Shown here: positions 11,917-62,228 of the stretch, piece after piece
Layout: each line of letters starts with the position of its first letter
Numbering within the stretch: position 1 is the first letter of the stretch
Notes under the pieces: generated by a model
Seen by the model: the letters and a program-made list of their open reading frames with translations, nothing else
Told to the model about the DNA's origin: nothing
Databases searched by the model: none
Origin: Pristiophorus japonicus
Taxonomy: Eukaryota
DNA: 64,000 nt
NCBI RefSeq assembly: GCF_044704955.1
Contig: NC_091980.1
Location: forward strand, 130,200,001 to 130,264,000
Direction: 5' to 3'
Made by a program: the position numbers and the translations under genes

Positions 11917-11984
11917 CAGGAGCTTGTGCAAGACAGAGTGAGATCCAGAATTGTGCAGAGAATAGTGAAATATAGTTAGTGAAG

Positions 11985-14515
11985 ATGGCCTGCCAAGTAT
12001 GTCAGAATGACTGCAAGGACTGTGAGGCTGCTGTCAACAAGCAAATCAACATGGAGCTCTGTTCCTCCTATGTTTATCTCTCCATGGTGAGTTGTGTATT
12101 CCTTGTTGCTGCATTCTGAAAAGTTGTTAATTCTCCAGTTCAATGAATTGGCTTTAAGTTGTATTTCTCTGGACTTCCTTCCCTGGGGGAGCAGAGTCTT
12201 TGGGCAGTGAGGACTTCAGGTTTTTAATACAGGGGATCATGTTGAGGTCATGGACTGCTCCCTGTAGCAGCTGTCCTCCTATTTAGGTTTAATATTGGAA
12301 ACCAGCTCAGCTGCTGCCTGAGTGTGACAGAAGAGCACAAACCTGGTCAGGGGCCTGTTGACCTGAACAATGTTCAGTTTCAGTGGGGGACTGCAGTGAG
12401 TGAAATGTGGGTAGGTTCTCACTAGTGCTCATTAAATGGAAGTCATGTATTGAGAATCCTGGTGTTGGAGCCCTGTTCACTGCTGAGATCTTTATTGCAC
12501 TATTGCTGTGTAAACTACTGGAGTAGAAGATTTTTCTCACTCCATGCCCAAACTTTGACTTAGAATGGAAGAATAATCATTTCTATAATGCCTTTGACTA
12601 ACTTGGAATATCCAAAGTGCTTTGTAGCCAATGGAGTTAAGTGTAGTTACCTGTTATGTGGGAAATGCAGCAGCCAATTAGTGCACAGTATGCTCCCCCA
12701 AACTGAAATTAGATAATGATCAGATCATCTGTTTTAGTGGTGTTGGTTGAGTGATAAATATTAGCCAGGACACTGCAGAGAGCTCCTTGCAGTAGTATCT
12801 GGAACATGGAGAAGGCTTGAGGGACCAATGGCTGACTCCTGTCATTCACTAAGATCATTGCTAATCTTGGATCTCAACTCCACCTCCTGCACTGTCCCCA
12901 CATCCTATGCTATCCAAAAATCTATTGCTCTTGCATATTCTCAATGACTGGAATTCTCTCCCCCAGGAGCTGTGGAGGCTCAGAGTTGTAACTGAGTGAA
13001 GAAATTCCTCCTCATTGCAGCCCTCAATTACTGACCCCTGGTTCTAGACTCTCCAGCAAGGGGAACCATTCTCCCTGCATCCAATCCTTCAAGCCCTGTA
13101 AGAATTTTGTACATTCCTAATGACATCACTTCTCATCCTTTGAATCTCTAGAATAGAGGCTCAGTCTGCTCAATCTCTCCTTGATCTTTCACATCCACCT
13201 GATGACTGACACACTCTTGTGTGAATGACCAGAAAGTAGAGGAGGTATTACTTATCCAGGAGTAGAATTTAGTTTGACTGGACATGAAATATAATCCTGA
13301 ACTTTTGGTTTATATGTTCAACCAGCAAAGGAAAAACTTTCATCATGCTATGGGGAGGTGAGGCTCAACTCCAACTGATGAAGTCAATGGCATTTTGCTA
13401 GTTTACAAATGGTGTCTATCTTTTAAGAATTCACTCACTTGGGGAAAAATAACTTTCATTGTATATGAAGATCAAGGTCTAAATAAGCTGTCTTAATTTC
13501 TCTCTGCAGTCCTTCTACTTTGACTGGGATGATGTTGCCCTGTGTCACTTTGCTGAGTTCTTCAAGGAGCAGTCACATGAGGAATGTGAGCATGCTGAGA
13601 AACTGATGCAATTCCAGAATTGCTGTGGGGGATGGATCATCTTGGTGGACATCAAGGTTGGAGTCAATTATCAAGTGGCCTTCTGTCTGGATACCCTGAG
13701 ACCTGATTGTTTCAAATACCTCCTAAAGCAATTGATTCCATGGTTGTGGCAGTGGATTCAGTAATTCTATTTTTATGGTAAAATGGAATTCTGGTTGCTT
13801 TTTCATCCTATTTTCCTTGTAATGTTTTGTTTGTTCCATTGTAAGTGAACTACCTGTTACTTTCCTCTTCAGAAACCAGAGCAGGATGAATGGAGCAATG
13901 GTCTGGATGCAATGCAGAGAGCTCTTCAGATGGAGAAGAATGTGAACCAGAGTCTGCTGGATATGCACACAATCTCCACTGGGAGCACTGACCCTCATGT
14001 AAGTTCCTCATGTGGGTTTCTGGGTAACTTGGAGGTGGTGGAACATTGCTATCTGAGCTGTTTCAAAAGTGCTCCATGCCCAATATCTTTGTTTTTGTCG
14101 GGGTGGGGGGGGGTTCTTCAGGGGGTGGTGGAGAGGACTGTGAAGTTGGCCTACTGTGGACATTGAGAAGTAAATGTGTCCCAATGTTTCCAGGATCTAA
14201 GCTCATTGTACAGGAGTTACTAGATCATTAGAGCAAATGTACATCAATCTCAATTGCCCTACTTGACACTTCTCCACTCTTAGAGGATTAAAATTCCAAC
14301 TCTAGGGGATGCTCTGATCCATAGCTGCTACTGGCCATAACTTGTTTCACTCCTTTCAGTTGTGTGACTTCCTGGAGACTCCCTACTTGGATGAACAAGT
14401 TAAGATGATCAAGAAGCTTGGAGATCACATCAGCAACCTGAAGAGACTGGGAGGCCCTGAGAATGGCATGGGAGAATACCTGTTTGATAAGCACACCCTG
14501 GAGGCGAGTGACTAA
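11985..14515 (+). CDS. Ferritin heavy/middle-type subunit, copy B (type 2), 176 aa, open frame, unusually Cys-rich
   Basis: Exons 11985-12086 ([34 protein letters not shown]), 13510-13656 ([49 protein letters not shown]), 13873-13998, 14360-14515 ([10 protein letters not shown]...HTLEASD*). All introns GT-AG, phase 0, as in vertebrate ferritins; AATAAA 14631. Confidence 0.9.
12580..12790 (-). mobile_element. 3' part of a Deu-domain (SacSINE1-like) SINE in intron 1 of type-2 ferritins
   Basis: Reverse complement matches the SINE at 31950-32205 (gtgtcctggctaatatttatc..tcaaccaaca...acagatgatctgatcattatc); also at about 42820-43040 and 62820-63040. Confidence 0.65.
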
Positions 14516-15509
14516 ACTGACTGATGGGATCAAGATTATTATACTTGGTCCTTGTATTTATATAATCAGACCCCTGTTCTGAGGGAATTATGCCTTGTGA
14601 CTTTGTGTAAAGAGCTGAGACCTGTCACTGAATAAATGGAAATGCTGGAGTGTGCTTTCAGTTTGAGTGGTTGCTCATTTTTCATTTTACTTAACTTGGT
14701 TTACATCAAACAAGAATTATGTTGATCTGAGGAACAGTTATGAGATTCAGTCCTATGAAATGTGTTTATTCTCTAGTGTAATGTTGCTATATTGACTAGG
14801 ATATGCAGGCACCTGTTGTAAGATCTAAAATGTTCAAGGGTGTGGTCAGATAACTGACCACCCCATGGGATATTGGCCCAGTGACAAAAAGCATGATTGG
14901 AGGTATGTATTAAGATGTTTAAGGAGGGATCTCCAGAGCTGGGGACTTAAGCTACATAAAATTGACTGTTCCTGCTATCTCCCCTTGCATAAATGACAAT
15001 TCAATCCAACAAGAAACAGGGGGCCGATTTGCCATTAAATCATTGTTGCACCATTTCAATCCAGTGAAGAAAAAGTCCTGGATTAGCTTCCTATTTTGTG
15101 TATCTGTCTTGTGAAGTTGTTGTTGTGTAGCTGCACTAGATCCTGTTCAGTTATCCATGTAGTTAAGTAATGTGATTCACCACTGCTGCTGTAGCCTTTC
15201 TGTTAAGCTTTGTCGGCAGACAAGCAATGTCTCAGCTCATGGAACTCTGCCCACTACAATTGGGCGAGGAGGGAAAGCAACAAGTGATATCAGCTTGCTG
15301 TCACAGCTTCATTGGTTAGTGCGGATACCCTAGTGGGTGTGATTCCTTGTGTTTATCGAGCTTCTCCTTAAATGTATCTATACACTTGGCATTCAGAATT
15401 ATTACTGCGGGTAGCTCAGTAAATGCACTGCTGCTGCAGATTTTGTGTTCAAATGTGTGCGCAATGAAGTGAGTAACAGCTATCGACATCAGCAATGTCT
15501 GAGCTCAAG

Positions 15510-60525: not shown

Positions 60526-62059
60526 TGTACAGACTCATGTTTGATTCAGGTTGGTCAACTGTGCTCATTGGTGGCATCTCCCCTGAAAGGGTAGTGCCTG
60601 TGGTGTGATTGGTGGCTCCGGATCTGAATCACTGCCGCACTCTCTGCCCCATCTAAAGCAGAGTTTTAATCCAAGGGATCACCTCTCATCAGCTCATCGA
60701 GAACTGAACCACTTCTGCACTGAAACCAGACGTCACGGCTTTGAATCTCCGGGATACACCAGCATGAAAGGTCAATGACCAGAGGGGAGAGATGAGGACG
60801 ATTATTTTAACGCAGGGAGTTGTTGTGATCCGGAACGCACTGCCTGAAAGGGCGGTGGAATCAGATTCAACAGTAACTTTGAAGAGGGAATTGCATATAC
60901 ACTTGACAAAAGTTGCAGGGCTATGGGGAAGGAGCTGAGGAATGGGACGAATTGGATGGCTCTTACAAAGTGCCTGCACAGGCACGATGGGCCGAATGCC
61001 TCTTTCTGTGCTGATAGAATCTATGATGAGCCAGACAGTTAGAGCATACCTGAGCCTCATCATTTCAATCAGATTTAAATATTCATCATTTCAATCAGAT
61101 TTAAATATTCTTTCGAGTCACTGAAAACCGACTGTGAAAGGACACGTCTAACACATCAAATTGAGGGGCAGGAAAAGACCAGCTGGTCCATCAAGCCTGC
61201 CCCAAAACATGCCGGAGCAAATCATAGAATCATAGAATGGGTACAGCACAGAGGGAGGCCATTCGGCCTATCGAGCCCGTGCCGGCTCTCTTCAAGAGCA
61301 CTTCAGCTCGTCCCACTCCCCCGCCCTTCCCCTGCAACCCTGCTATTAATTTTTCCTTCAGGTACTTATCCAATTCCCTTTTGAAAGCCACGATTGAGTC
61401 TACCTCCACCACCCTCTCGGGCATTGCATTCCAGATCCCAACCACTCGCTGCGTAAACATGTTGACTTTGGTTCTTTTGCCAGTCACTTTAAATCTGTGT
61501 CCTCTGGTTCTCGACCCTTCTGCCAATGGGAACAGTTCCTGTCTATCGACTCTGTCCAGACACCTCATGATTTTGAATCCCTCTATCAAATGGAGATGTG
61601 GGTGACAATGTGTTCAGTAATGTTCACTCCCTCTCATTCTCACTCAATATATTGAATTTTACCAGACATCATTCCATGAGAATAAAAATGAAAGATTGTT
61701 GATGCCCCCATGTAGCCAATCCTCAGACACATGCCCATTCTCTGTATTCGAACTGGGGGCAGTTCACACCACCCACAGGATGGAATTCCCATTCCACTGG
61801 CCAATGCTTGGTTTGTAAATGCACCAAGATGACTTGATTGCTTTGAATATTGTCTCAGTGCCACAGAAACTTGCAAGTAACAAACTTCGCCAGATTATGA
61901 AAAACCCCTTTGGAGAAAGTCGAAAATTATAATTTCATTCAAGTGAGAGCGTTAAACAACGGCACACTTTCAGATTTGAAGACGTTCAAGGAACCCAAAG
62001 GCAGTGACATCACCAAGACTGATCTCCCCCAGACCCCTCCTACAAATCCCCTCTCCTTT

Positions 62060-62160
62060 GTTAATTGGTGCCTCAATTCCTGATTGGCTCTGAGGGATTG
62101 TCAATCATCATTGGTGATGTCATACCCTGTTTGACTGCAGCTGTTCCAATAGTATAAATA
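62060..62160 (+). promoter_or_regulatory. Core promoter of ferritin copy G
   Basis: ATTGG at 62064 and 62083, TGATGTCA at about 62115, TATAAATA 62153-62160. Confidence 0.62.
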
Positions 62161-62228
62161 TAGGAGCTTGTGCAAGACTGTGTGAGTTTCAGAATTGTGC
62201 AGAGGATAGTGAAATATAGATAGTGAAG

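Follow-up and report, generated by a model that had tools for sequence, protein, structure and literature searches.

The closest described systems are the ferritin clusters of the Greenland and great white sharks, with 155 and 179 copies and a largest cluster of 222 (Sahm et al. 2024, 10.1101/2024.09.09.611499). In that paper, the copies are labelled FTL and FTH1, with more than 85% full length, and RNA-seq indicates ovary-specific expression of the largest Greenland shark cluster. The word "iron" has no occurrence in its main text, where neither iron nor iron-responsive elements (IREs) are mentioned.

The window analysed here, a 64,000-nt stretch of the Pristiophorus japonicus genome, is a small part of a shark ferritin array of this known, several-hundred-gene kind. 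It contains seven copies (A–G) of a tandem array on C4 that extends over 5.6 Mb and comprises about 280–350 genes. The array has in common with the clusters of Sahm et al. hundreds of tandem copies and a protein clade shared among distant sharks; it differs in that its copies group in a single chondrichthyan clade of their own, outside both H and L, with about half of them intact. By protein clade membership, rather than synteny, the Greenland shark ovary cluster would be of this array's type. A second Greenland shark genome paper is said to describe an "FTH1b" expansion. The initial annotation, which dealt with six ferritin leaders of the window, missed both the array context and the family-wide spread of the IRE relic.

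Composition of the array and of the window

Leaders were sampled from 117 of the roughly 300 array copies, and four-exon gene models were built for 92. Under a strict test, 43 of these models are intact; the other 49 fail, including three of the six genes of the initial annotation, and 10 of the 49 are open from the ATG with only the end altered. The 176-aa proteins start with MASQV, align end to end with cytosolic H and M ferritins and contain the ferritin domain (PF00210), encoded by four exons at conserved positions. All five ferroxidase ligands, which we take to be E27, E62, H65, E107 and Q141 in human H numbering, are found in 41 of the 43 intact copies, including A, B, F and G of the window, and these are predicted to be active; all 43 have Met at the site corresponding to human residue 144. 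Over 39 distinct coding sequences dN/dS is 0.25, as under purifying selection.

The window genes are listed in Table 1; exons 1–2 of A fall upstream of the window start and exons 3–4 of G past its end. Gene B is the most diverged of the 39 distinct intact copies (24 amino acid changes relative to the family majority) and is possibly decaying. C, D and E are pseudogenes, so that their leaders are uninformative on present regulation.

Table 1. Ferritin features of the window (all on the + strand)
Feature	Position	Description
Gene A, exons 3–4	3829..4417 (3829-3954, 4259-4417)	Open frame, 177 aa; model at C4:130195653
Gene B promoter and class II leader	11809..11984	ATTGG at 11809 and 11839; TATA 11909-11916
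Ferritin gene B, four exons	11985..14515 (11985-12086, 13510-13656, 13873-13998, 14360-14515)	Open frame, GT/AG intact
Gene C promoter and shortened class I leader	24245..24382	Degenerate TATA 24331-24338; relic region mostly deleted
Ferritin pseudogene C	24383..28659	In-frame stops at 27330, 27435, 28095
Gene D promoter and class I leader	32432..32602	Degenerate TATA 32522-32529
IRE relic in D	32562..32581	C8 bulge and 5' upper stem intact; 3' arm changed
Ferritin pseudogene D	32603..35815 (end approximate)	9-nt deletion in exon 1; stop at 35237; frameshift at exon 4 start
Gene E promoter and class II leader	42061..42236	TATA-like 42161-42168, degenerate; no IRE
Ferritin pseudogene E	42237..44818 (end approximate)	Exon 2 donor one base short (frameshift); insertion near stop
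Gene F promoter and class I leader	52754..52925	TATA 52843-52850; heavily decayed relic position about 52880-52900
Ferritin gene F	52926..57160 (52926-53027, 55812-55958, 56573-56698, 57005-57160)	Intact, 176 aa, five ferroxidase ligands
Gene G promoter and class II leader	62064..62228	TATA 62153-62160; no IRE
Ferritin gene G, exons 1–2	62229..63904 (62229-62330, 63758-63904)	Intact, 176 aa

Leaders without an intact IRE and the relic that most of them carry

The SIREs 3.0 rules were re-implemented (22 loop motifs, with one mismatch or one 3' bulge allowed). Within 100 nt of the ATG, no match was found in the 117 array leaders or in the six window leaders, against a background of 28 matches in 2340 shuffled 100-mers, and the genome's own single-copy H and M genes pass as positive controls. 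Extending the distance to 400 nt yields matches in two of 117, both to non-canonical motifs lying 375 and 398 nt upstream, above the TATA box. No Rfam family reaches the gathering score in the window, and none of five array loci matches IRE_I even at E<=10, while the H and M loci score 46 and 45 bits; the genome-wide Rfam IRE search, which scored no more than 82 candidates, served for positive controls only, and the array was covered by the separate scans and pattern searches reported here. The central observation of the initial annotation, six leaders without an intact IRE, is borne out. Twelve relaxed hairpins with non-canonical loops were rejected as IREs, as they match no SIREs motif.

Array leaders fall into two classes. 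Class I (102 of 117; C, D and F in the window) bears an IRE relic, and class II (15 of 117; B, E and G) has lost it wholly, in seven cases on intact genes. The class I consensus aligns with the M gene from the TATA box to the IRE with a score of 43, reached by 0 of 1000 shuffles (maximum 36), over about 70 nt of promoter on which the link between array and M gene rests. A search of the class II leaders for the relic found none, the consensus scoring 28 against M, with 60/1000 shuffles. The relic consensus is identical to the M IRE at 16 of 20 positions, whereas four-fold sites differ by 0.56–0.58.

The features of a functional IRE were drawn from RF00037, SIREs and Volz 2021. Among the 102 class I leaders, the expected base is present in 83 at C8, 90 at C14, 97 at A15, none at G16 or U17, and 80 at G18; position 16 is A in 101. 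The A15-G16-U17 of the CAGUGN/CAGAGH loop is thus absent from class I, and G16, a base contacted by IRP, cannot be replaced by A according to PMC8466369. The C14–G18 cross-loop pair is mostly kept, also in D. The C8 bulge base, five bases 5' of the loop, counts as a sequence feature only, because the hairpin does not form: the consensus 3' arm has one mismatch and one wobble, the lower stem is lost, and minimum free energy folds of D and of the consensus are not IRE-shaped, in contrast to those of the H and M IREs. A genome-wide TATA-anchored pattern, which detects only copies with a perfect TATA context, gave no match with G16 and 32 with A16, of which 30 fall within the array. Since the loss of G16 is common to intact and broken copies, it predates decay. 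As read from these leaders, the IRE appears to have been disabled in this family rather than absent from the start.

The broken hairpin noted initially in D is real: it matches the M-gene IRE core at 13 of 20 positions (p about 0.045 taken alone), belongs to a family-wide relic, and has the loop CAAGGC in place of CAGUGU (G16 to A, U17 to G, G18 kept), with no IRE fold. C and F, described as lacking an IRE-type hairpin, indeed have no IRE, but they belong to the same relic-bearing class as D and are more decayed (10/20 each). The five leader intervals quoted (B, C, E, F and G) are found at the coordinates given, each with a TATA-like box before it and a ferritin ATG after it. Taken as 5' UTRs, however, they are too long, including about 25 probably untranscribed bases. 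If transcription starts 30–35 nt after the first T of TATA, the predicted window 5' UTRs measure about 42–54 nt, and 18–23 nt in C; that of B would span about 11938-11984 and holds neither an IRE nor a recognisable relic. Of the retrocopies, only two extend into the 5' UTR: one lacks a few bases at its 5' end, and the other is flanked by a TATA-like sequence that makes its boundary less clean. The start of the C11 retrocopy falls about 30 nt below the TATA box, at an Inr-like position. Dispersed copies cross spliced junctions in 11 of 11 cases, and such spliced retrocopies indicate that array genes are transcribed.

Proposed origin and role, and competing explanations

The array proteins form a separate clade (support 99/96) that is present across sharks, rays and a chimaera. 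The H clade (99/89), which holds the C14 gene beside a bestrophin gene, excludes them, and neither bestrophin nor glycogen synthase has a match on C4, which argues against FTH1 orthology. The protein tree leaves the sister gene of the array among the single-copy ferritins undecided. On C19, four genes of array type flank the X/mito/M/L cluster, and tree support is 99.7/100 for Y1 plus the array and 85/91 for X with both; X and Y1, the nearest relatives of the array, are without the relic. An origin of the C4 site by whole-genome duplication was considered and rejected: glycogen synthase lies on C13, C14 and C19 and bestrophin on C8, C14 and C24, with none on C4 (one search used a stricter filter).

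It is well supported at the sequence level that IRE-less leaders with a mutated relic would let array mRNAs escape IRP1/2 repression. We consider it likely that the array is a block of about 300 intron-containing, IRE-less ferritin genes whose mRNAs would be free of IRP1/2 repression and which would probably supply bulk ferritin to the ovary or egg. Alignment and trees suggest descent from a gene of the C19 M/L cluster with a cap-proximal IRE, whose loop would have been inactivated before the family was amplified, introns kept, at its new C4 site. With no IRE in any leader sampled and G16 replaced in the class I relic, IRP should be unable to bind, following the IRP1–IRE structural rules, leaving transcription and copy number to set the output. 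Intact copies, which make up about half of the array, bear the ferroxidase ligands and are under purifying selection, and birth-and-death turnover yields the broken half. Germ-line retrocopies, together with the ovary-specific RNA-seq signal of the Greenland shark cluster, point to the oocyte or ovary as the cell type, which would build iron-storage capacity regardless of the free-iron level, leaving housekeeping iron sensing to the single-copy H and M genes.

The initial annotation went on to propose escape from iron-dependent translational control and an "iron-independent ferritin system". The escape has good sequence support (no IRE, G16 in 0/102, the 5' end of the retrocopy), but "iron-independent" goes too far, as the same genome keeps IRE-controlled H and M genes. 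Loss of an IRE is uninformative on iron or haem effects on transcription and on ferritin turnover. Naming mitochondrial ferritin as the exception was also too narrow, because three other single-copy ferritin genes of this genome have no IRE within 400 nt of the ATG.

A passive expansion, in which the IRE decayed within a mostly non-functional block of poorly expressed or dispensable genes, would account for the 49 failing models, the large recent segmental duplicates, the degenerate TATA of C, D and E, and the higher dN of broken copies (0.044, against 0.020 in intact ones). We regard it as unlikely given the low dN/dS, the retained ligands, the promoters (TATAAA in 77 of 117, ATTGG in 115), the breadth of the clade, the transcription implied by spliced retrocopies and a G16 loss older than the decay. 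An IRP-free but iron- or stress-responsive somatic role (blood cells, liver, antioxidant or anti-ferroptosis), exerted transcriptionally through a conserved promoter element, is equally improbable. The element TGTCA(A/C)TCA, which resembles an AP-1/Maf-type site, is conserved in 75 of 117 array promoters and common also to the X and Y genes, but the full ARE consensus occurs in only seven of the 117 and the MRE consensus in 12, and the Greenland shark cluster is ovary-specific.

The persistence of the relic might instead reflect reuse as a weak or non-canonical IRP site, a site for another RNA-binding protein or a downstream core-promoter element. Its similarity to the M IRE, the mostly kept C14–G18 pair and the slightly higher conservation of its columns (0.84, against 0.79 and 0.71 in the flanks, a small gap among copies that are not independent) would fit, yet none of the 22 SIREs motifs fits the loop, D and the consensus leader both fail to fold into an IRE, and the relic is gone from the 15 class II leaders, intact genes included, and largely deleted in C; we hold this very unlikely. 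An IRE supplied by an upstream start or by an additional non-coding exon, which the initial annotation had named as a refutation, was sought. A weak acceptor is conceivable in AU-rich leaders; even so, this reading is extremely improbable, for the exact IRE core has no occurrence in 1.55 Mb of array, the 24 strict hairpins there are intronic or repeat-borne and none occurs in the 3.6 kb upstream of any sampled exon 1 on the same strand, no pyrimidine-tract acceptor (our own pattern) was found in 117 leaders, the retrocopy boundary falls at the TATA-dependent start, and the position of the relic shows where, close to the cap, the ancestral IRE lay.

Comparison with known ferritin systems

The array and its ovary expression are already published for other sharks, and IRE-less ferritins of eggs and the germ line have precedents; in the literature searched, with subscription journals thinly covered, no paper on IRE loss in shark ferritins was found. 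What the preferred reading, an IRE-less array serving the ovary or egg, would add is an explanation of hundreds of shark ferritin genes as a separate clade outside IRP control rather than extra FTH1 or FTL. A family that lacks IREs and is probably confined to the ovary does not amount to systemic iron buffering, so such expansions would be read differently in claims on longevity or ferroptosis. It also makes a direct prediction on the iron provisioning of large shark eggs.

Vertebrate cytosolic H and M genes (RF00037) share with the array four exons, intron positions, the 176-aa length, ferroxidase ligands and a TATA promoter, and the M gene also a homologous leader. The array differs in its IRE loop, mutated at G16 and U17, with the 3' arm altered and the lower stem lost, in its roughly 300 copies instead of one, and in Met at 144.

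The yolk ferritins of snails (Lymnaea, Biomphalaria; PMC10799875) and Schistosoma (PMC1488847) are of an egg-provisioning type with no IRE in the mRNA, a likeness of function that the array would probably share. The snail protein is secreted, with a signal peptide and a 42-aa insertion, is apparently encoded by a single gene and has an unrelated origin (PMC10799875). The array, unlike it, is massively amplified, and its 176-aa proteins have no leader peptide and neither the signal peptide nor the insertion that define invertebrate yolk ferritin. On balance we lean slightly towards the broader view that cartilaginous fish possess a second, ancient ferritin system: an M/L-cluster clade that lost IRP control through fixed changes of the IRE loop, with hundreds of genes predicted to be catalytically competent, and that stores iron in the oocyte of a vertebrate, by convergence with the yolk ferritins of snails and schistosomes. 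If this view is true, the human IRE mutations behind unregulated ferritin synthesis would have in this clade a counterpart that arose naturally and became fixed.

Among mammalian ferritins, FTMT is likewise outside IRE/IRP control but is an intronless retrogene with a targeting peptide, and FTHL17/Fthl17 is expressed in germ cells and amplified to six genes in mouse but has no ferroxidase activity (both in PMC7760355). The array, in contrast to both, keeps introns and ferroxidase ligands and appears to have lost its IRE by point mutation; it would be a vertebrate case of such loss in an intron-containing cytosolic ferritin, with the fossil still readable.

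Absence of the IRE from the sampled array leaders

The array was sampled over 1.55 Mb of sequence holding 117 exon-1 copies and 92 four-exon models, a non-random sample, as 30 loci in it were chosen by similarity to gene D. The initial annotation had described leaders (the stretch between TATA box and ATG) without an intact iron-responsive element (IRE), and this observation is confirmed. The leader stretches it quoted are found in the sequence, an Rfam scan of the window returned no family, and under the SIREs rules, as given in the available text of PMC12230718 and PMC2896125, 0/117 array leaders are positive within 100 nt of the ATG. 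Within 400 nt, two of the 117 match, both non-canonically and above the TATA box; 28/2340 shuffled controls are positive. As positive controls, the single-copy H (C14:166.75 Mb) and M (C19:93.15 Mb) genes carry perfect IREs (46 and 45 bits). The exact IRE core does not occur in the 1.55 Mb of sampled array, and of the 24 strict hairpins detected there, none falls in the 3.6 kb preceding a sampled exon 1 on the same strand. A CAGTGA loop close to the 3′ end of intron 1, seen in genes C and F (window 27213 and 55702) and at homologous sites, forms a strict IRE-like hairpin in several other array copies; being intronic, these hairpins are probably due to chance.

TATA boxes lie 76–83 nt upstream of the ATG in the window leaders (52 in gene C). 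A start predicted 30–35 nt past the first T of the TATA box would give 5′ UTRs of 42–54 nt, so the leader intervals originally annotated are correct in location but too long, including about 25 nt that are probably untranscribed. TATAAA is present in 77/117 and ATTGG in 115/117 array promoters. By a simple motif criterion independent of the IRE, the leaders were divided into class I (102, including window C, D and F) and class II (15, including B, E and G). A CAGCTG E-box sits just upstream of the TATA box in 9/15 class II promoters, versus 6/102 class I promoters. Oocyte promoters use E-boxes.

Each of the 11 dispersed array-family copies examined spans one or more spliced junctions. The C11 retrocopy begins at an Inr-like position about 30 nt below the TATA box and the C3 retrocopy 43 nt before the ATG; the extra 5′ exon raised by the initial annotation as an alternative is absent from both. 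The C11 copy supports the start site without deciding it, because intron 2 is retained and its flank holds an unrelated TATA-like sequence. Heritable retrocopies imply transcription in the germ line or early embryo. Four other dispersed copies, of just the first ~85 nt of the M-gene transcript, each bear a perfect IRE and all end at the same T-rich point; they may have been retrocopied from a short RNA containing the IRE.

The IRE relic in class I leaders

The 20-nt IRE core of the M gene is matched at at least 13 positions by 84/117 leaders, compared with 5.5% of shuffles, mostly 39–41 nt before the ATG. Since the copies are not independent, the class I consensus is a better test than per-leader counts. 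This consensus aligns with the M gene from the TATA box through an Inr-like TCAG to the IRE with a score of 43, reached by 0/1000 shuffles (maximum 36). It also aligns with the promoter of gene X on C19 (score 38, 0/1000 shuffles); among ten comparisons in all, no alignment was obtained with the H, mito or L promoters. In class II leaders no relic is detectable (60/1000 shuffles).

Among the 102 class I leaders, C8 is kept in 83, C14 in 90, A15 in 97 and G18 in 80. G16, by contrast, has given way to A in 101 leaders and to C in one, and U17 to A in 70 and to G in 32. When the whole genome was searched with a TATA-anchored pattern, the G16 form had no matches and the A16 form 32, of which 30 fall in the array. 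According to the available text of Volz 2021 (PMC8466369), the key IRP contacts are A15, G16 and U17, and adenine is unable to make the G16 contact. On folding, neither the gene D leader nor the consensus leader forms an IRE, whereas the H and M IREs do. Judged from sequence, the array has very likely escaped IRP control; the label "iron-independent", applied to the family initially, is too strong.

Size, coding capacity and origin of the array

In this 5.92 Gb genome, C4:127.8–133.4 Mb takes 137 of at least 150 genome-wide ferritin matches, among the matches listed in a profile search. The exact exon-1/intron-1 pattern of the array has 151 genome-wide matches and recovers 48/89 exon-1 copies in contiguous samples; corrected for recovery it gives about 280 genes, and gene density gives about 354. 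The nearest database proteins to an array-family retrocopy are all from sharks, rays and one chimaera (identity up to 93%).

The window spans C4:130,200,001–130,264,000, and its seven ferritin copies all lie on the + strand. In the sample, 43/92 four-exon models are strictly intact, and a further 10 have altered ends but an open frame from an ATG. Mean pairwise dS and dN among 39 distinct CDS are 0.144 and 0.036, a ratio of 0.25 that is biased somewhat downward, as only intact frames were taken. Gene B differs from the family majority by 24 amino-acid changes, more than any other of the 39 distinct intact copies. All five ferroxidase ligands are present in 41/43 intact copies. Beside the ferroxidase centre, the position of human residue 144 is Met in 43/43 (Ser in H and Ala in M of this genome), which could alter iron oxidation kinetics.

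Features of the window and related loci (G000, this genome; C, chromosome or contig; L, individual locus)
Feature	Location	Strand	Remarks
Gene A	window, exons 3-4 only	+	frame open, GT/AG sites present once flanking sequence added; LTR-retrotransposon gag-like fragment in intron 2
Gene B	window	+	frame open, GT/AG sites present
Gene C	window	+	three in-frame stops
Gene D	window	+	one stop, one frameshift
Gene E	window	+	frameshift at exon-2 donor
Gene F	window	+	frame open, GT/AG sites present
Gene G	window, exons 1-2 only	+	frame open, GT/AG sites present once flanking sequence added
LTR-retrotransposon gag-like fragments	window about 2500-3520, 18280-18960, 36970-37500		between/inside ferritin genes
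Class II E-box regions	window 11800-11916, 42050-42168, 62050-62160		
Array-type copies, four	G000:C19:93049158-93097592	Y1 minus	Y1 at 93055483, apparently open frame, ferroxidase-region residues changed; three broken, one with LTR-like insert interrupting exon 1
Gene X, single-copy	G000:C19:93109390-93121556	-	no IRE; His65 to Gln; TATA context and TGCCACTCA element common to array
Presequence-bearing ferritin gene	G000:C19:93128522-93141729; L074:8522 onward	+	intron-containing; 31-residue Arg/Leu/Gly-rich N-terminal extension resembling a mitochondrial presequence
L-type ferritin	G000:C19:93189325-93203515	+	Lys at 27, Gln107, Ser141; no IRE close to ATG; LINE fragment upstream
C11 retrocopy	L097, G000:C11:6.5235 Mb	minus	partly processed, intron 1 spliced
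Short M-gene copies	L032-L035 (C10, C12, C17, C18), position 1501		
IRE_I match, 35 bits	L038, G000:C3:267.22 Mb	minus	away from any ferritin exon; may be from a 3′ UTR, e.g. transferrin receptor

A protein tree of 64 rows (16/43 intact array proteins, 43/120 database hits and 5 single-copy genes) places the array with rays and Callorhinchus in one chondrichthyan clade (99/96), separate from the H clade, and gives the array clade no resolved sister. At C19:93.05–93.20 Mb, four array-type copies adjoin X, a presequence-bearing gene, M and an L-type gene; across this region (256 kb) M alone has an IRE. In a nucleotide tree built from 21 CDS, Y1, the apparently intact one of the array-type copies on C19, groups with the array (99.7/100) and X with both (85/91), making X the closest non-array relative in this tree. 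Glycogen synthase and bestrophin have no matches on C4. We infer that the ancestor was an IRE-bearing gene of the M/L cluster: the family would have arisen there, lost the IRE loop and then been amplified at a new site, with movement presumably from C19 to C4. No relic was seen in Y1 and X, so this origin would need separate decay in those lineages.

The presequence-bearing gene keeps its ferroxidase ligands, and no IRE lies within 400 nt of its ATG. Since FTMT in mammals is an intronless retrogene, the intron-containing shark gene may be an independent mitochondrial ferritin.

Comparison with known ferritin systems

The literature searched yielded no report of IRE loss in shark ferritins. The available text of Sahm et al. 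2024 (10.1101/2024.09.09.611499) reports 155 'FTL' and 179 'FTH1' copies for the Greenland and white sharks and ovary-specific expression of the largest ferritin cluster; iron is unmentioned in the main text as available. By analogy with expression in another species, an ovary or egg role is probable for the array. In the portions available, egg ferritins without an IRE are described in snails (PMC10799875) and, by citation, schistosomes (PMC1488847), FTMT is IRP-independent, and FTHL17 shows germ-cell expression without ferroxidase activity (both PMC7760355).
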